Of a stretch of DNA of 64,000 nt, positions 14,100 to 63,058 are shown one piece after another. This stretch comes from Octopus vulgaris (Eukaryota). Within the stretch, counting starts at the first letter, position 1. The number at the start of each line of letters is the position of its first letter. Position numbers and translations under genes: made by a program. The notes under the pieces were generated by a model. It had not been told where the DNA came from. It did no database searches and saw only the letters and a program-made list of their open reading frames with translations. The stretch spans positions 35,960,001 to 36,024,000 of the forward strand of contig OX597823.1 in assembly GCA_951406725.2 (NCBI GenBank), written 5' to 3'.

Positions 14100-16000
14100 T
14101 TGAACTCTTAAATATATTAATTTGTCACTGTTGGAGAACTGAGATAGTGCCTCAAGACTAGATTGATGCCATTTTAGCCTCCTTGTATAAATCGGGGCCA
14201 AAGTAATTTTCGTGGGATTTCGCTTTTGTCTGTGTTTGGAAAGGTACTTGCCTACATTTTGTTAGAACGTTTAAATACCTTCATAGTTCCAAATATAGTG
14301 TCTGAGTCTCAGTGTGGTTTTCGTTCCTCCAGGGGCACAACTGATTGTATAACAAGAAAAGTGCATTGAACAGAATCTTGCTCTATACCATTGCTTTGTT
14401 GATTTGAGCAAAGCATTCGATACCGTTAATCGAAATGCTCTGTGGCTAATTCTAAGGAAAATAGGCTGTCCAGAAAACTTTGTAAACCTGATCAGGGCTT
14501 TGCATCAAAATATGAAAGCCAGAGTTAACTTTGGTGGGAGGCTCTCTGAATATTTTGCCGTGGAAAATAGAGTAAAGCAAGGAGACCTTGATGCACCCAC
14601 TCCCTTTGCAATATACTTTGCAGTTGTGTTGTTGCATGCTTTTCAAAACTCTGAGGAGGGTATTTACATAAAATATCGAACAACAGGGAATGTTTTTAAT
14701 CTGACCAGACTGTAATTCAAAACGATGGTTTTTACTTCACTCATTAGGGAACTTTTATATGCTGACGATTGCGATATTATCAATCATTCTGAAACAGGTC
14801 TTCAATCTCTTGTGTCTGCATTTGACTTAGCTTGTGATGATTTTGGCTTGACCATCGACTTAAAAAAAAAACAGTTGTAATGCATCAACCTGCGTGTGGT
14901 GTTGTTTGTAACCCCACTAAAATTTTTGTTATGGGTAAGTTACTTGAGGTTGTCGATTCGTTCATCTACTTTGGAAGCTCTGTACAAAATGATGGAAAAC
15001 TTGATACAGAAATACATCTGCGAATTCAAAGGGCAGCAAAAGCATTTGGTGGCTTGGAGTCACGCATTTGGTGCCAGCAACATATAAATAAGAATACAAA
15101 GCTGGCTCTTTACAAATCATTTGTCTTACGTTCCCTGTTGTATTCTTGTGAAACATGGACTTATGAAAGGCATTTTAAATTGTTAGAACAATTCCACCAA
15201 AATTGTCTTCATCGCATTTTAAACATAAAATGGAGTTCTTTTACTCCAAACACAGATGTCCATGCATCTGATGCCTGCAGATCACATCAATTAAAGCTAT
15301 GATTTTGAGAAACCAAATGAGATAGTGTGGCCATATTGCTCGAATGGTGGATGAACGCATGCCGAAACAGCTGTTTTATGATGAGCATGTAGAGGGGAAG
15401 CACTACTGGCCCAAACCTTAAAAAAATGGTTTAAGGACGGCATAAGGACTACTATGAAATCACTTGGAACGGATCCAGAAGACATAGAAACCCTTGCTTC
15501 GGATAGAGCTGGATGGCGAACAAAAGTGTGGAATGGAATGAAAGCGTTTGAAGAGGCCAGGATAACGCATGTAAGACTCAAATGAGATTTAAGGAAGAAT
15601 GTTACGATCGAGAAGGCGAATGACAATGTCCTTTTTGTGCGCACAGTTTGTGACAGACCGTGCCTTTCCTTTGCTGGGCTCAAATCTCATTTGCGAACCC
15701 ATGGAAAACAAACCTTCACCAACTATTCTGCCTATATGTCTGTGCACACTTTTGAATGCAGTGTATGCCAGAAGGCTTGCAAATCTAACGGAGTCCTCAA
15801 AGGACATTTTAAGATCCACAAAGATCGGAACTTATCTGCAGCTCTTGGTGGACCAAATCGGATGTGCAATGTATTTGGATGTCTGTTCAGAACATTGTCT
15901 GGTTTTAAAAAAACCATATCAGATGCAATGATCGTTCTAAAGAGTAGGTACAGGTGGTCACACTCTGCATAAGGAGTAGACAACCACTATATATGTATGT
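14100..16000 (+). mobile_element. 5'-truncated RTE-clade LINE with C-terminal C2H2 fingers
   Basis: NFRGISLLSVFGKV, FVDLSKAFDTVNR, VKQG, ELLYADDC, LLYSCETWT, then three CxxC...H repeats and a (TATG) tail. Confidence 0.9.
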
Positions 16001-19725: not shown

Positions 19726-19916
19726 ATGGTCCGAAAAATTTGCGTATTAGGAGCTGGAGTTATTGGTCTCTACTCAGCTGTACGAATTCTTGAAGACTTA
19801 CAAAATGTTGATGTTACAATTATTGCTGAAAAATTTACTCCGAACAACACAACCGACGTGGCTGCTGGCTTCTGGAGACCCTATAAAATGGGCTCCACAA
19901 ACCCGTCCCTAATCAG
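19726..19916 (+). CDS. DAO: D-amino-acid oxidase / D-aspartate oxidase family, coding exon 1
   Basis: Encodes [18 protein letters not shown]...[12 protein letters not shown], i.e. the GxGxxG FAD-binding motif plus the DVAAG motif. Donor AG|GTAAGT at 19917 (phase 2). An upstream acceptor-like TTTTAG at 19694-19699 suggests a non-coding exon further 5'. Confidence 0.93.
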
Positions 19917-30127: not shown

Positions 30128-33100
30128 TTTTATTATTATTACTTTTCCTTCTTTCTTCAAATTTTCTTCCATTTCTCGCCGAGTGTTTTCCGTACACCTA
30201 GGGCAGAGAAGCTCATTGTATGCATTCTCAGATTACGTCTCTGTAACTTAGCAGTTCGGCAAAAGAGACCGATAGAATAAACACTAGGCTTACAAACAAT
30301 AAGTCCTGGTGTCGACTTGCTCGACTAAAGGCGATGCTCCAGCATGGCCGCAGTTAAATGACTGAAGTAAAAGAGTAAGTCTTTATATTTACTGATCTTG
30401 TCAAATTCTTTCGCCGCTATATTGTGATCGCAAGAAATACTCATGTCAATTAATAAACACACCTTTTTTGTCTGATCTTTTATAATAATATCCGGTTCAT
30501 TAGCTTTTATAGTTTTGTCGGTATGTACGGAGAGGTCCCAGAGAATCGACGCATTTTCTCCCTCAATCACAGTTTCAGGATGGTGTTTATACCATTTGTC
30601 AGCGGTTTTGATTTTATAATGCTGACATATTGTCCAGTGTAAATACTGGCCGACTCTGTCATGTCTTTCTGTATATTCTACAGGTGCTAAAACTCTTCAC
30701 TCTGAGATTAAGTGGTCTATAGTTTCAATCTCATCGTTACAGAATCGGCATTTTGGGTCAGCTCCATTTCTTATCACATTGGCTAGGTAGTTCTGGGTTA
30801 ATAAGCTTTGGTCTTGAGCAGCTAATATGAAACCTTCACTCTCTGCTTTTAGCCCTGAGCTTCGTAACCATTAATTCGTGTGTTTCTGGTCGACATCAGC
30901 TTGTTTGCTACGGGCCACATACTTGCCATGCAGAGGTTTCTGTTCCCATCTGCTAGCTAATTTTTCGTGTGCTTTTGTCTTTGCAATTAATTTTATTTTC
31001 TTTGCAGCAGCAGTTGGCGCATTTTCTTCAACCTGATCAATCTGGTAGGTATCTAAGAGATCAGTAGCGAATATTTTGCTCTCTTTCAGAATAGAGTGAA
31101 GTTTTTTCGGTCTTTCGTGTTTTTCAACAAGTTTTAGCTTCCAATCGTTGGCCAGTCCGATTTTGGTGGTTTTGTACGTAAGTTCAAGCTGGATCAAGCC
31201 TCGACCTATCTGAGCTCTGGGAAAGTAAAGACGATCCACGTCTACCTTTGGATCGTGCATCTTATTACAAGTCAGTAGCTTGCGGATTTTTCTGTCAATT
31301 TTCATTATTTCACTGGTATTCCAGTTAAGCACATTGAAGCTATAAAGAACAACTGGAACTAAGGAATTTATGGCTAACATATTATATGCATTCAACTCAG
31401 ACTTCAGGACTGCTCGAACTCTTCTATAACATTCCTTCCTAACCTTCTCTTTCATGCTTGCATGCTGGATACCAGAGCCTTCATTTATTCCTAGGTATTT
31501 ATAGGTTTGTTCCTGCTCAAGTTCCTTTATTACTCTTTCGACATCTAATTCGATTGAACTTGACTTTACCGATTTCCCTTTCTTTAAAAGTGGCTTTGGC
31601 ACGCTTTTCAAGGCCAAATTCCATCCCGATATCATCACTGAATTCTTTCACAGTATGTAGTAGTCCTTTAAGCTCTTCATCATCTTTGCCATATAGTTTT
31701 AAATCATCCATATAAAATAGATGGCTTATTTTCCTGTTGTCAATTTTGTAGCCATAACCTGTTCTATTCAGTTCACTTGAGAGTGGTATTAGTGCTATGC
31801 AGAAAATTAGTGGTAAAAGTGAGTTACCTTGGGAAATGCCACAGTTTATGCTAATGTTGTTTGAGTGCAATACTCTATTAGAATGATATAATTGGAGCTT
31901 CGTGCTCCATAACTTTAAAAAATCTGAAACCACAGGAGAAATTTTGAAAATGTCCAGCGATTTCAGAATCCACGAATGTGGTATGCTGTCAAAGGCTTTT
32001 TTATAATCAATCCATGAAGAGCTGAGATTTCTGCGCTTATTATGGAAGTTCTCAAGGATCATGCGATTGATTAGGAGCTGATCTTAGCATCCGTATGAGC
32101 CTCGTCTGAATCCTTTTTGTTCAGTGGGAAAGAGGTTATTCTCTTCTATAAACGTATATGTTTTCTCCACTGGAATAGATGTCAAAATCTTATAGGTAGT
32201 AGAAAAACATGTTATAGGCCGGCAGTTTTTGGGGTCTTTGGTTTCGTTATTTTTGGGAAGGAGGTAAGTAATACTATTTGCTATCTAATGGGGAGTTTTT
32301 TCCGGATCTTTCATAATACTATTAAATAGCATTACTAACATTTTGCGTGCGGACGAGAGTGATGAGAGCCAGAAATTTTGTACTCTATCAATACCAGGGG
32401 ATTTCCACTTATGAGCCTTCGTTAGTGCCCTCCTTAGGTTAGCGATTGAGATGTCTTCCCATGCCTGTTGTAGATTTTTGTAGGCATCTTGGGTACATTT
32501 GATCCAGTTTGCATTTTCATTGTATGGTTTCTCATCACTCCAGATCCCTTTCCAAAAGTTTTCAACTTCTTCCATTGGGGGTGGATTTTCAATGGTTATT
32601 TTTTCTTTCCTTATTTCCCTGTAAAGTGATTTGGCATTGGATTTGAACATCTTATTTTGCTTGTAGTATTTAATTCTTTTCTCAAATCTGCGTATTCTCA
32701 AAGCTTTTGCTTGAACTTTTTGCTTAAGTGTTTCTTTCTCTGACATTAGTTCTTCTCTTGTTGAGAGTCCATATTTTCTCACAATCTTCCTGCCTTTTCT
32801 TGATCTTACTCCATTTCCAGAGATTAGCTCAGTTAATATTGATATCTCCCTTCGCAATGATTCAATCTCAGTTTCAATTCTACTCCCCAGTTTGATTTTC
32901 TTTTTGAATTTGGTATCGTTGGCTTTTTGGGTATTAAACAACGTCTTTCGATTACCTTAGCAACAGAGTAAATAATTCCATTTAACTTATTAAGATTAGG
33001 TTTTAGTTGTTGTATGATTTCTTGTGTAGCGCAGTTGCCAATTTTTAATTGTGTTTTATATTGGTGTGCATTTGAGAGTTTATGGAGTGGTTCCCTATCA

Positions 33101-34044: not shown

Positions 34045-34142
<98 letters not shown>

Positions 34143-34168
34143 TGTATGTATGTATGTATGTTATGTCA

Positions 34169-34246
34169 GGTCACTTTCGAGTGCTACTGGTAACATGTAA
34201 CCCAGTACAACCTGTTGCATGGTCGGGTCGTCGGCGACTAAACCGG
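34169..34246 (+). ncRNA. HDV-like ribozyme fold (degenerate)
   Basis: P1 GGUCAC(34169-74)/AUGGUC(34219-24); P2 CCAGU(34202-06)/ACCGG(34242-46); P3 ACA/UGC with an ACC loop; P1.1 CC/GG(34225-26); P4 hairpin UCG-UCGG-CGA; J4/2 C-UAA with the putative catalytic C at 34238. Confidence 0.6.
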
Positions 34247-34711
34247 CAACCCTACCAAGCTTACTTGGTGAGGAGGGTGTTTATGGACACCCTGCGGGAT
34301 GAAAAACAAAACCCGTCAAAGAGGAATTCTTGAGAGTCAACGGCCATCCAATAAATGTCTTATGGCTGTATCATGCGCGGGGACATAGAAATAATCGGAC
34401 TGAATACCCGATCGCGCGGTTAAAACCATTGGGAGTGAAGGACTCCTAGCCTTTGTTAGGGCATCCTTCTAGGAGAAGGTAACTCAGGTAACTGGGATAA
34501 CTCCGATATAAAACCTGCGGCTCAGTGGTTACCGATGATGTTGACTTGTTCTTCTTTTCGGATCATGGCTGCTGTTGCTTAGTGAGTGGGATTGACTCAC
34601 TTCACAGCCTTTCCTCACTTTAAAAAAATCTTTTTGCACAGGCATTGCACGATAACAACATTGATTAAACTTCGTGCAATGGCCATACTCGATAACGAGG
34701 GGGCAGCTACC
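34169..34711 (+). mobile_element. Non-autonomous bipartite RTE-derived retroelement (5'UTR plus 3' tail, no ORF)
   Basis: Contains the RTE 5'UTR-like motif CTCCTAGCCTT..AGGGCATCC..CTAGGAGAAGGTAACTC. The 3' end resembles the end of the RTE at about 15955-16000. Flanked on both sides by (TATG)n. Confidence 0.6.
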
Positions 34712-35482
34712 ATGTATGTATGTATGCATGTATGTATGTATGTATGTATGTATGTATGTATGTATGTATGTATATGTGTGTGTATATATATATGTGTGTG
34801 TATGCATGTGTATGTGTGTGTGTCTAAGTATTATTTATAATATACATATATATATAATATATATGACATATTATATGATGTAAATATATAATGCAATGTT
34901 TTATAGATTTATAATACATCTATTATATAAGACCTATCATAGATTATTGGATATCATAATCTATGTTAATACGCCTCTCCACATTAACAAGGATTAAAGC
35001 AAAAAGACATCCATCTAAATGGCATATATAGATTTTCATTCAACACGTCTGATTTGTGTTTTGGCCAAAATATCAAAATATGCCAGGGAGTTGACCGTCT
35101 CTCAGTGTGCAAGAAATACGATCGACATTGGAGATATGTGAAGCATGGGGTGTGAGAATAAAATGTTATTTACAATAATCGATATTGACCTCAATATTTG
35201 CTTAGAATTTTATTAAAGGCCAACTAGTGGAAGACAAGATCATCTTCTATGGAATTTGGACTCAGACCTTAAAGGGACGAGACCAAATACCACAAAGTGT
35301 TTTACCCAAGACACCACCAACTCTGCCAATTCACCTTCCATGTGCCAATAATAAATAGTGCATTCACCGAATGAAGAAATATCGAAATCCTTAAAAAATT
35401 TAATGTCGCTCGGTTATTAAAGTCAGAAACAGCGACTTTCTAAAGATTGTCAAATTTAATATAACTTTTGTTTGTTTTTCAG

Positions 35483-42939: not shown

Positions 42940-44378
42940 GTTTAACGTCCGTTTTCCATGCTAGCATGGGTTGGACGGTTTGACCAGAGTCTGGGAAGCC
43001 AGGAGGTAGCGCCAGGCTCCAGTCTGATCTGGCAGTGTTTCTACAACTGGATGCCCGTCCTAACGCCAACCATTCCGTGAGTGTAGTGGGTGATTTTTAC
43101 ATGCCACCGGCACAGGGGCCACAGGAGGCTGGCAAACGGCCACGATCGGTTGGTACTTTTTACGTGTCATCGACACGGACGCCAGTCAGGCGGCGCTGGC
43201 ATCAGCCACGTTTGGATGGTGCTTTTTACGTACCACCGTCACGGGTATCACAACTACAATTTTCATTTGATTTTTATTTTGATGTTGGTGTTGATGTACT
43301 TGACTCAATAAGTTTCCTCAAGAACAGTGGGTCACTCTACGATCCAAAGTTAGCACAGCTGGCCGTCTTGCGAGCCATGAACTCACTTCATTTGTCGGGT
43401 CTTCGAAGTTACAGCATATCTCCAGAGGTCTCGGTCTTTCGTCATAGCCTCTATGAAGCTCAACGTACGAAGGTTATGCTTGACCACCTCGTCCCATGTC
43501 TTCCTGGGTCTACCTCTACCCCGGATTCCTTCAACAGTTTGGGAGTGGCACGTCTTCACACATCTCTCCTCATCCATCTGTAGTACATGACCATACCAAC
43601 GCAGTCGTCTCTCCTGCACGGTGCATCTGATGCTTCTTATGTCCAACATTTCTCTCAGGGTGCTTACACTCTGTTGTGCATGGCCACTGACATTACACAT
43701 CCAACGGATCATGCTAGCTTCATTTCTTTTGAGCCTACACATATCCTCCGCAGTCACAGCCCATGTTTCACTGCTGTGAAGCATGGCAGTTTGTACACAT
43801 GCATTGTACAATCTACCTTTCACTCTGAGTGAGAGACCCTTTATCGCCAGTAGGGGAAGAAGCTTTCTAAACTTTACCCAGGCTATTCTTATTCTAGTGG
43901 TAACACTTTCTGAGCATCCACCCCCACTACTAACTTGGTCACCTAGGTAGCGGAAACTATCAACTACTTCTAGTTTCTCCCCCAGGAGTGTAATGGAATC
44001 TGTTTTCTGAGTATCAGTGGTGTCTATTGCCCCTGTGCATCTGCCGCACATGAAAGCTATCTTCTCGGTTAATTTTCCTTTGATGTTGCTGCACCTCTTA
44101 TGTGTCCATAGCTTACACTGGGTACATCTTATGGAGTTTCTACCTACACCATTTCTGCAGATCGAGCAGGGCCACCTACCTGAAGGGGCGTGTAGTGAGT
44201 TTGCCTTCTTGCTTACTACAATTTTGGTCTTTGCCACATTGACTCTAAGGCCTTCTGATTCTAAACCTAGCTTCCACACACGAAATTTCTTCTCTAGTTC
44301 TAGTAGTGATTCTGCTACGAGGGCTAGGTCATCAGCATAGAGGAGCTCCCAGGGGCAACCTGTCTTGAATTCCTCTGT

Positions 44379-44380
<2 letters not shown>
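42901..44380 (-). mobile_element. 5'-truncated RTE-clade LINE with (GAT)n tail
   Basis: ELLYADDLALV, a Cys-rich insertion WPCSICRNGVGRNSIRCTQCKLWTHKRC, FRYLGD, MLHSSETWA, RRLRWYGHV, RGRGRPRKTW. Confidence 0.9.
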
Positions 44381-44471
<91 letters not shown>

Positions 44472-44860
44472 ATGTGTGTGAGAGTCTTTGTGACTGTGTT
44501 TGTCTCCCATACCACCTGACAACCATTGCTGGTGTGTTTACACCCCTGTAACTTAGCAGTTTGGCAAAAGAAAATAAGTACCATGCTTAAAAATATGTCC
44601 AGGTGTTGATTTGTTCAACTAAAACCCTTCATGTTGGCACTCCAGCATGGTCGCAATCAACTGACTGAAACAAGTAAAAGAATATATATGTTCTTTTATT
44701 CTTTTGTTCTTTTACTTGTTTCAATCATTTGACCGCAGCCATGCTGGAGCACCACCTTGAAGGGGTTTTTTTTAGTCAAACAAATTCACCCCTAGGACTT
44801 ATTTTTTAAGGTTAGTACTTATTCTGTTGGTCCCTTATGCTGAACCACCAACTTATGGTG

Positions 44861-60553: not shown

Positions 60554-62319
60554 GTGAGTTCTCTTATCTTTACTACTGTCTCTTCCTTCTACTCCTACTC
60601 CTATTCCTTGACTGAATCCCTATTTCTTAACCAACTTCATCTAGAAGAGAACCACAAAGAAGACTATATTAAGAACTTCTCCATTAAGTTGATATACAGC
60701 AAATCAATAAATCACTTTCAGATCTTTCATAAAATACCAAGGTCATCACTGATTGGTTTAATTGTATCTCTATTAGACTTAATACAGTAATGCCTTGATA
60801 TACAAGTTAATTCATTGTATATTGCTCTTAAATTGAAAACTCATAAAGCAGAGCAATAATTTCTCATAACAGCAATGTTATAAACCATAATTCATTCCCA
60901 GAAAAATATTTTACCTATAAAATTTATAATACTCATAAATAAATGGCAATAAAACAACAGTAGGATATAAAGAATATTTTATGTAGCATAAAAAGAAAGT
61001 CAATTTCATTTGTAATGAAGAATATTGTTATTATAATTGTTTTCTGAATCACTTTTATGTGCACTAGACTCAAGCACACCATCACTTGTGGACATAATCA
61101 CCAATTCCCTAACACTCATTGACAGACTTGTAGATTTCTTTTTAAAAAACAAGTTTAGAGTTATGTGCTTAGAAGAAGCTTTCTTTCGCTCTCTATTTAT
61201 ACTTGTAATTACTGGGGTACTGGAATATATAACACACTGCCTAAATACCAGTATTGAGAAATTAGGCTTCTTAAAACCAAAAAGGAGAAAGCTGGTTCGA
61301 AGACTACAGATCCAAGCCTTCACTGGAACTATAAAATCTGTAAAACTTTCCAGAGGTTTATCATTTAAGTATATATGAGCATGTCTAGACATGCAGCTAT
61401 GTTCATGAGAATACATACATAAAACAAAACATACAAATCTACACATATTCATATATACATACACACATACATACATACATACATACATACATACATACAT
61501 ACATACATACATACATACATACATACATACATACATACATAGTTCAAATTTATAGAAAAACAAAGATGAAGGCAGATGTAGGAACTAAAAGCAAGTGTAT
61601 TAGTTTGACACTTGGGAAAAATGGAAAAATCTTTTGTTTCAAGTCTATGCTCTTCAACAGAAAAGAATAAGAGGAAATAGAGAGAGAATGAAAAAAGAAC
61701 ATATTGAGTTCACTGGTCCAACATGGTGAATGCATACATGGATACATACATACAAACATGCATACATACATGCATACATACATACATGCATACATACATA
61801 CACACACACACACATACATACATACATACATACATACATACATACATACATACATACATACATACATACATACATACATACATACATACATACATACATA
61901 CCCTGTTGATGTAGTTGAAATTCCAATGAAGAAGCCGTGGATCTAGGTTGGAAACTGACTCTTTATTGGCATGAAATCTTGAAATAAAACTAAATAATGA
62001 TTTACACACATGATGATCATTGTCAACTTGTAGATGAGTGTGACCACTACTGACAAAACAATGCTTGTGCAAAATTTTAGGTCCAATAAGGCTTGCACAA
62101 CACCACATAGACCCTCTCCCCTCTATTGACATTTTGCAGACACAAGCCAAAGCAAGATATCCAGTGCCAATATGGATCACAGGCTCAATAATGTAGGAGC
62201 ACAATGATCTCGAGTGCAAGCAAAAGATCCCCAAAATGTTCAATGTCATTCCCTGTTCATCTGGTTTTATATCAGAGTGATCTTCTCTTAAAGATATGCT
62301 TTCACAAAAGCTGAGGGCT

Positions 62320-63058
62320 GCCTTAACAGTTGGAAGAAGGCTGTCTGGGCCAAATGCTTCTTTTGGCTGTCTCCAGACATATACTTGGCCGGTGGTTGGA
62401 AATAAGGTAAAGGATGACTCGTCCGAGAAAATAACATTCTTCCATAGCGCTAGGGACCAATTCTGTAAGTTTTTACTCCACTCTAAATGCTTTGCAACAT
62501 TTGTTTTTGAAAGTAGTGGTTTTCTGATTGCAGCCCTCCTGCTTTGTGCAGCTCCCAGCAAACAGTTTTTGTGGCAACTGGGTTCTCGAGGTGGTCATTA
62601 AGCTCTGCAGTAATTTTGGGAGCTGTACTTTTGTGATCCTTTCTAACAATTTGCATAAGAGTCTGACAGTCCCTATCTGAAAGTTTTGGTTTTCGTCCGG
62701 AGTTTTGTTTCGACGAGGAGGTTTTTTCCTCTTTCTCAAAAGCTCTCATTACTTTCAAGACAGTACTTCTTGATACACTAAACATTTCGGCTGTTTTTGT
62801 TACATTAGCACCTGCCATATGAGCACCAACAATTTGACCTCTTTGAAAGTCCAATAGATCTGTCATTTTAATGAATTTTACTTACTTTTTTTTTATGATA
62901 TCTGAAAAGAAACAGCAATTTTAGCAAAGTATATTAAGCAACACTAATAATAAATCGAAAACATAAAAATAAACAAGCTTTTGATGGTTTTATAGATATT
63001 TCAAAATTATGATGCTATAATAAATGCTAGGTGTTTCCATTATTTTGTCCAACCCCTG
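62320..63058 (-). mobile_element. Tc1-like transposon, 5' half
   Basis: TA+CAGGGGTTGGACAAAATAATGGAAACAC terminus; MTDLLDFQRGQIVG...SGRKPKLSDRD; WKNVIFSDESSF; truncated after LLPTVK. Confidence 0.9.

Follow-up and report, generated by a model that had tools for sequence, protein, structure and literature searches.

The Element and Its Surroundings

The window (the whole 64-kb stretch of DNA analysed here) contains on its + strand a short non-autonomous derivative of an RTE retrotransposon. An ORF-less element flanked by (TATG)n had been described at this point in the earlier note and was confirmed, with no coding frame in 34169-34711 and (TATG)n tracts on both sides. The sense orientation inside a DAO-like gene of the + strand was also borne out: the exon at 19729-19914 gave a Pfam DAO match with an E of 3.6e-6, just under the cut-off, and later DAO-like exons at 48.1, 49.1 and 60.4 kb bear motifs and have no Pfam match of their own. 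The features along the element are listed below.

34114-34161, + strand: upstream (TATG)n target tract, one base out of register with the element
34162-34711, + strand: non-autonomous RTE derivative in its true extent, a ~548-bp core plus 7 nt
34162-34166, + strand: 5-nt leader, with the modal 5′ end at 34162
34164-34165 and 34166, + strand: 5′ strand of the predicted PK1, and U of the predicted U·A-U triple (features from PMC5760640, PMC13161572)
34167-34214, + strand: three-way junction, pair probabilities mostly 0.6-0.85, outermost P1 pair 0.35
34217-34221, + strand: predicted S4 strand of PK2, complementary to L3 at 34194-34198
34222-34250, + strand: downstream hairpin region at the P4 position, register ambiguous
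34162-34360, + strand: ~195-nt 5′ module common to divergent RTE families
34460-34485, + strand: conserved motif, presumably a general RTE 5′-UTR motif, which in a second animal, too, follows the module (L178)
34665-34711, + strand: RTE 3′ terminus, with TTAA microhomology at its join with the 5′ UTR and 95-100% identity to the partner 3′ end
34712-34799, + strand: (ATGT)n tail or downstream target repeat

The repeat family gave 41 other matches at 95-96% identity, drawn from the best 40 of 1,321 candidates scored in the 2.80-Gb genome (227 contigs). An internal 24-mer had 1,889 exact matches, mostly inside (TATG)n (reversed control, 0), and a pattern for the 5′ module had 1,736 exact genome matches (control, 2). 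Taken with a divergence of 3-4%, these counts imply a copy number of probably some 3,000 or more. When copies were selected by the internal motif and nothing else, 23 of the first 30 kept the 5′ end and 23/30 had the same internal junction, indicating amplification as a unit. L061, L078 and L071 represent another deletion form, which exceeds this one by about 110 nt. Automatic calls of target site duplications were mostly uninformative over these simple-repeat flanks, with clear ones at L026 and L027. The single odd copy L220 and L177 were excluded from the counts; L220 (1497-1600) is a single-copy variant with about 45 additional bases between S4 and the downstream hairpin.

Several copies stand head to tail with (TATG)n between them (L006/L012, L016/L035, L017), new copies inserting into the tails of earlier ones. 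Another, L010, sits in what looks, by its motif, to be a 5.8S rRNA fragment, with a duplicated 5′ 180 nt nearby. Recurrent 5′ truncations were seen at element position 205 (window about 34368) in L033, L050, L051 and L068; the truncation point is an internal TGTAT matching the target repeat, a situation that can be read as microhomology-driven joining.

Parentage in the RTE Clade

The partner family was found via a motif match located 1.8 kb upstream of an RT match. Its full-length members L180 and L186 are 4.0-4.2-kb RTE copies with EN and RT frames between the regions common with the element. Positions 1-500 of the element are 90-96% identical to these copies, with the EN and RT domains following in members of the family, and positions 502-546 are 93-100% identical to 10 RT-bearing loci. 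The composition suspected in the earlier note, an RTE 5′-UTR plus an RTE 3′ end, is thus upheld: since L180 and L186 share both parts, the element is a 5′ UTR with a 3′ terminus. The alignments show it to be an ORF-less internal-deletion derivative, ~550 bp long, of a ~4-kb RTE LINE, in which the 5′ UTR runs straight into the final ~45 bp. Another RTE, at 14-16 kb of the window, had been proposed as the relative and was rejected as partner. Its RT piece and the partner family share only 55-60% identity, it belongs to a different family, and the supposed kinship with the RTE end at 15955-16000 amounts to 78% over 32 nt including the tail (E 0.37). A tRNA-headed SINE was ruled out as well, a simple scan having found no tRNA gene and no A or B boxes in the element.

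The element is therefore filed as a bipartite non-autonomous RTE derivative, a known type of which RTESINE1/2, WALLSI3, MAR4_MD and Bov-A are named examples (PMC5786205). Like them, it has a 5′ end or UTR joined directly to the 3′ terminus, is ORF-less, ends in a microsatellite tail and lacks a small-RNA head. The difference lies in the 5′ device, since the accessible text of that source discusses ribozymes and mentions no nuclease-resistant fold.

Other derivatives of this kind were seen. The loci L110:2834-3210 and L110:400-690 hold older short RTE derivatives, 63-77% identical and also built of a UTR plus a 3′ end, one of them directly behind a young copy. A further RTE family (L200-L218), with an EN about 55% identical to that of the partner, has its first ~195 nt 97% identical to the element, which can be read as recent exchange of the 5′ module between LINE families. 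A 5′-truncated short derivative of the UTR of that family, with a (TATG)n tail, lies in the window at 61900-62320 on the - strand; at the 3′ end it is similar to the RTE end at 15955-16000, and it adjoins a fragment labelled by eye as Tc1/mariner-like. Fragments of other LINEs at 30874-32956 and 43386-44537 of the window (- strand) contain RT domains, and one of them also has a PHD-like finger.

A Fold Resembling Flavivirus Subclass 1a xrRNAs

The element's 5′ end gave a match to a viral RNA family. With a 203-nt query, the Rfam family Flavivirus_SLIV (RF01415) aligned over the whole model at 34160-34231 with 22.5 bits (E 0.059), a score well below the gathering threshold of 54.5 bits. All pairs of P1, P2 and P3 in this alignment are standard, and positions that depart from the viral consensus are paired. 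The general family Flavi_xrRNA (RF03547) had no match in the element, and Rfam gave no match to any xrRNA family in one old-family copy and four loci of the second animal. As defined in the literature (PMC8374639, PMC8571300, PMC13161572, PMC5760640, PMC8078501), subclass 1a xrRNAs have a three-way junction with a fixed P1, a variable P2, a single C between P2 and P3 and a U·A-U triple, and two pseudoknots: PK1, in which the 5′ end forms 1-2 bp with J3/1, and PK2, in which L3 forms 2-8 bp with S4, followed by P4. The corresponding parts in this copy, all on the + strand, would be as follows.

34164-65/34208-09, +: predicted PK1
34166 with 34186-34206, +: predicted triple, U34166 with A34186-U34206
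34167-71/34210-14, +: predicted P1, 5 bp
34172-83, +: predicted P2
34184, +: junction C (C34184), the single C between P2 and P3
34185-90/34202-07, +: predicted P3, 6 bp
34191-201 and 34208-09, +: L3 and J3/1
34194-98/34217-21, +: predicted PK2

The three-way junction is already given by nested folding. We consider it probable, and a strong prediction, that 34162-34221 adopts the Xrn1-resistant fold of flavivirus subclass 1a. The likeness to the viral RNAs extends from the junction, the variable P2, the single C and a 5-bp P1 with the same four outer pairs to the predicted triple and PK1, a possible PK2 of 4-6 bp, the hairpin that follows S4 and an RNA end placed 5 nt ahead of P1. There are differences too: the module lies at the 5′ terminus of a cellular retrotransposon and not in a viral 3′ UTR, its P3 has 6 bp, and two of the three junction-closing pairs, those of P1 and P3, are U-A. 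Such pairs are described as exclusively C-G in 1a by a paper whose own de novo designs only favour G-C (PMC13161572), and they were C-G in 14/14 of the viral loci that we parsed, a figure partly fixed by the search pattern. Because of these junction pairs and the sub-gathering score, and with Xrn1 resistance being a prediction, the module is to be called 1a-like and not a 1a member. Two more traits bear on the 3′ side. Nested folding gives in this copy and family a long hairpin at 34214-34250 that competes for the S4 strand of PK2, and prefers another register at the P4 position; and the two linker bases after P1, which show almost only pyrimidine changes, could pair downstream, unlike in viral xrRNAs.

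Chance resemblance was assessed with a descriptor of the published 1a features, with no P1 sequence fixed, that was written after the match had been seen. It had a single match on both strands of the 64-kb window, at 34167, and none in 20,000 dinucleotide shuffles (two when a 1-bp PK1 was allowed). Over 1.46 Mb of loci of the same genome, 84 matches fell in RTE modules and one in a low-complexity site elsewhere. The viral test set consisted of 44 loci of a viral collection picked by primary motif, 16 of them flavivirus-sized 3′ loci (Rfam matched flavivirus families in 6/7 tested, the other 9 being assigned by size and position) and 28 controls. The descriptor recovered 9/16 of the former (14/16 relaxed) and 0/28 of the latter (1 relaxed). 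In the reciprocal direction, a model (R1) trained on 12 octopus rows only and with rough E-values matched 14/16 of the viral loci at the start of the xrRNA. Its nine best non-RTE scores were all viral (15.8-28.2 bits), the best motif-matched control reaching 15.1. The post hoc writing of the descriptor lessens the weight of the shuffle figure and leaves the reciprocal test unaffected. Pattern scans did not find the module itself in the viral and prokaryotic collections.

Conservation across Copies, Families and a Second Animal

P1 is fully paired in 87/98 young copies. Across four groups of sequences, the junction C was present in 95/98, 19/22, 13/18 (a partly mis-parsed group) and 4/4, the bases of the predicted triple in 91/98, 19/22, 16/18 and 4/4, and the G-C pair of PK1 in 92/98, 19/22, 17/18 and 4/4, counts that are all inflated by the anchored parse. 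The second PK1 pair was found in 0/4 of the sequences of the second animal, leaving one pair there, and PK2 is shorter or bulged in that animal. Among the RTE copies 4-6 bp of PK2 are possible; 95% of its cells are paired, with no double change (86% in a 24-row set), and the competing hairpin covers the same strand.

The P2 hairpin has 12 nt in this copy, reaches 23-26 nt in older families and shows double changes; P1, P3 and the junction are constant, a pattern also known from 1a. In alignment A2 four pairs had double changes, three of them in P2 (6/500 shuffles). P3 was 99% paired in 24 rows and had two double changes; at the P4 position a change from U-A to A-U was found in 4/24 rows, all of one lineage. 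P1, PK1 and PK2 are invariant or nearly so and had no double changes within the RTE set, so that these helices appear compatible with the sequences rather than proven by covariation.

Three RTE families with only 42-45% protein identity have the first 85 nt of the module in common at 94-98% identity; between families the remaining UTR falls to 69% or shows no detectable similarity. This contrast indicates that the module has moved between RTE families recently. A divergent version from another animal was found in four contigs of one metagenome assembly, in one of which (L178) the module is followed by the RTE UTR motif; 4/8 of the metagenome matches were unrelated.

One octopus copy with the same 5′ module, although with its own P2 hairpin, is L199:666-4650 (G000:C16:4915165-4919150). 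It has an uninterrupted ORF of 3,327 nt (1,109 aa) behind a 604-nt 5′ UTR. These are the ORF and UTR dimensions published for RTE-2_OV of Octopus vulgaris (PMC9115989), and the two are equated here by dimensions only, the RTE-2_OV sequence being absent from the supplements searched (4/8). RTE-2_OV is reported to be expressed in octopus brain (PMC9115989). With 42% protein identity to the partner of our element and no shared 3′ end, L199 is not itself the partner.

The Position of the 5′ Junction

The leader matches the target repeat, and in 110 copies with intact P1 we determined how far upstream the repeat-phase match extends. It stops after exactly 5 nt in 37/110 copies, the mode, with a second mode at 3 nt (23/110); another 17/110 are in register for 20 or more nt upstream, and these two groups blur the end. 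Among the 35 copies with non-TATG flanks, nine had the junction at 5 nt and seven at 3 nt. One source describes Xrn1 as halting 5-6 nt before P1 (PMC5760640), another puts the halt two positions upstream of PK1 (PMC13161572), and in this element the site corresponds to 34162. Judged from DNA copies, i.e., genomic junctions, the RNA end thus appears to lie at the distance from P1 that is typical of 1a. This agreement with the published halt is independent of the Rfam score, and a promoter or a ribozyme could give the same end.

Ribozyme, Promoter or Exonuclease Block

The earlier note had read the region as an HDV-like double pseudoknot that begins at G34169 and uses C34238 as its catalytic base. 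A C-U-A-A does come after a small hairpin, the pairs of which nested folding favours (0.88-0.93), and mismatches are tolerated by R2 ribozymes (PMC3774820). The rest of the evidence runs the other way. No HDV family scored in Rfam at E up to 10, and an HDV descriptor, run without a known-positive control, had 0 matches in the first 330 nt at strict, no-U20 and loose settings (shuffles 4, 11 and 88 of 300). The pairing probability of the proposed P1 was 0.0 in the register with C34238 as catalytic base, and its strand is taken up by the hairpin that varies in length and sequence between families. In that register, pair counts did not exceed those of shuffles in alignment A1, nor was there any pair with a double change in the 12 rows of A2 or any excess over shuffles. 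A P1 of 6-7 bp at the RNA 5′ end was not found, nor was a 3-bp P3 with a 7-8-nt L3 and a P1.1 adjoining P2 and P1. Copies start about 7 nt upstream of G34169, the 5 nt before it being conserved in 39-41/41, and over 34162-34252 the family majority is identical to this copy, which leaves the mismatched pairs as they are. A boundary away from P1 and a consensus that leaves the pairs unrestored are two outcomes that the earlier note itself had named as speaking against an HDV fold, which is now largely refuted and scarcely credible. What stands of its picture of a promoter-less, ribozyme-processed, SINE-like parasite of RTE is a non-autonomous, internally deleted element with a structured and sharp 5′ end; the structure does not fit an HDV-like ribozyme. 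Another HDV register takes the upstream repeat as P1; it would call for 11 extra nt between P2 and P3 and was set aside on inspection. Twister was discarded by eye against the table in PMC8501958, its C-U-A-A and G-A-G-G-G lying in separate covarying hairpins, and resemblances to twister-sister, pistol, hatchet and hammerhead had no Rfam match. A self-cleaving ribozyme belonging to a class not yet described, with its cut some 5 nt before P1, would suit a clade whose 5′ ends are known to bear HDV-like and twister ribozymes (PMC5786205, PMC8501958), and the invariant single-stranded core could be catalytic. We hold it to be quite improbable, given that no ribozyme family matched in Rfam at E up to 10, that the 1a tertiary contacts account for the conserved bases, and that the downstream hairpins covary, by eye, as plain hairpins, which removes the twister-like reading.

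An internal RNA polymerase II promoter starting at about 34162-34168 would equally predict a sharp 5′ end and the swapping of 5′ cassettes between LINE families, the junction serving in protein binding or translation and the xrRNA likeness being incidental or secondary. The roles can coexist, the first 77 nt of L1Tc being both promoter and ribozyme (PMC3185411). Such a promoter predicts neither PK1, the triple and the PK2 complementarity nor the reciprocal model matches, and shifts of up to 14 nt in the length of P2 just past the start would presumably displace elements of fixed spacing; it seems to us unlikely, if still worth serious attention. A polymerase III head is unlikely too on the simple scan for tRNA genes and A/B boxes mentioned above. 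The module might also be a genuine xrRNA by descent that has lost its use and persists as a relic within a UTR that bears a promoter. The U-A junction pairs, the competing hairpin and the weaker PK1 and PK2 of the second animal would fit a relic, and yet the core hardly varies between families or between the two animals, with the remaining UTR down to 69% or without detectable similarity, so that we give little credit to this explanation.

We tend to favour, with some reserve, a module that acts as an Xrn1-type block setting and shielding the element RNA's 5′ end. Copies in introns or read-through RNAs would be transcribed from host promoters, making a promoter of their own unneeded. The host RNA would be opened by an entry cut (debranching, decapping or endonucleolysis), and Xrn2 or Xrn1 would then degrade it 5′ to 3′ and halt at the knot, at about 34162, leaving a unit-length RNA. 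The partner RTE protein may bind this RNA in trans through its 3′ 45 nt and copy it into (TATG)n tracts by target-primed reverse transcription. Because the leader matches the target repeat, insertion in register would resupply the bases of PK1 and the triple, and it would provide microhomology at the 5′ join. In R2 and Perere-3 it is the ribozymes that are completed by target bases in a comparable manner (PMC3774820, PMC8501958). Contrary to the earlier note, which expected an active copy to cut the DAO pre-mRNA, nothing supports cutting, and the sense intronic copy would leave at most a stable intron fragment.

Relation to Known Systems

The nearest functional parallels are the R2 SIDEs, NARTc/RIME (HDV) and the Perere-3 twister variants, which likewise have a structured 5′ module predicted to release the unit RNA and partly completed by the target (PMC3774820, PMC3185411, PMC8501958). 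These cut themselves, whereas the end of the octopus element would come from trimming by a host exonuclease. A 2021 review knew of characterised xrRNAs in viruses alone and asked whether eukaryotic genomes contain them as well (PMC8374639). The literature searched, including the accessible text of PMC12397905 and PMC12222951 and with subscription journals and Repbase outside its scope, contained no report of an xrRNA in a retrotransposon. Within that literature, a fold of this kind would be new outside viruses. A more far-reaching reading, to which we assign a probability of roughly 0.5, is that an animal RTE lineage carries a working flavivirus-type xrRNA at its 5′ terminus, and that host exonucleases, not a promoter or a ribozyme, carve its RNA from host transcripts. 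This would be a third route to LINE 5′ ends and the first cellular xrRNA, present in thousands of copies, by exchange or convergence with flaviviruses.

The element offers a concrete candidate xrRNA of 60-90 nt, intact in this copy and accompanied by natural variants. If the reading holds, exonuclease trimming would join promoters and ribozymes as a way of defining LINE 5′ ends, stable intron-derived RNAs would be predicted from thousands of loci, the making and stabilising of the brain-expressed RTE-2_OV RNA would be concerned, and the question of the origin of flavivirus xrRNAs would be raised. The module could also be a natural 5′ stabiliser for retrotransposon templates, whose insertion is limited by 5′ stability (PMC12222951). 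Behind the knot, at 34253-34330 of the window, three further hairpins keep pairing, by eye, through the changes between families and may form a second structured domain, e.g., for cap-independent translation.
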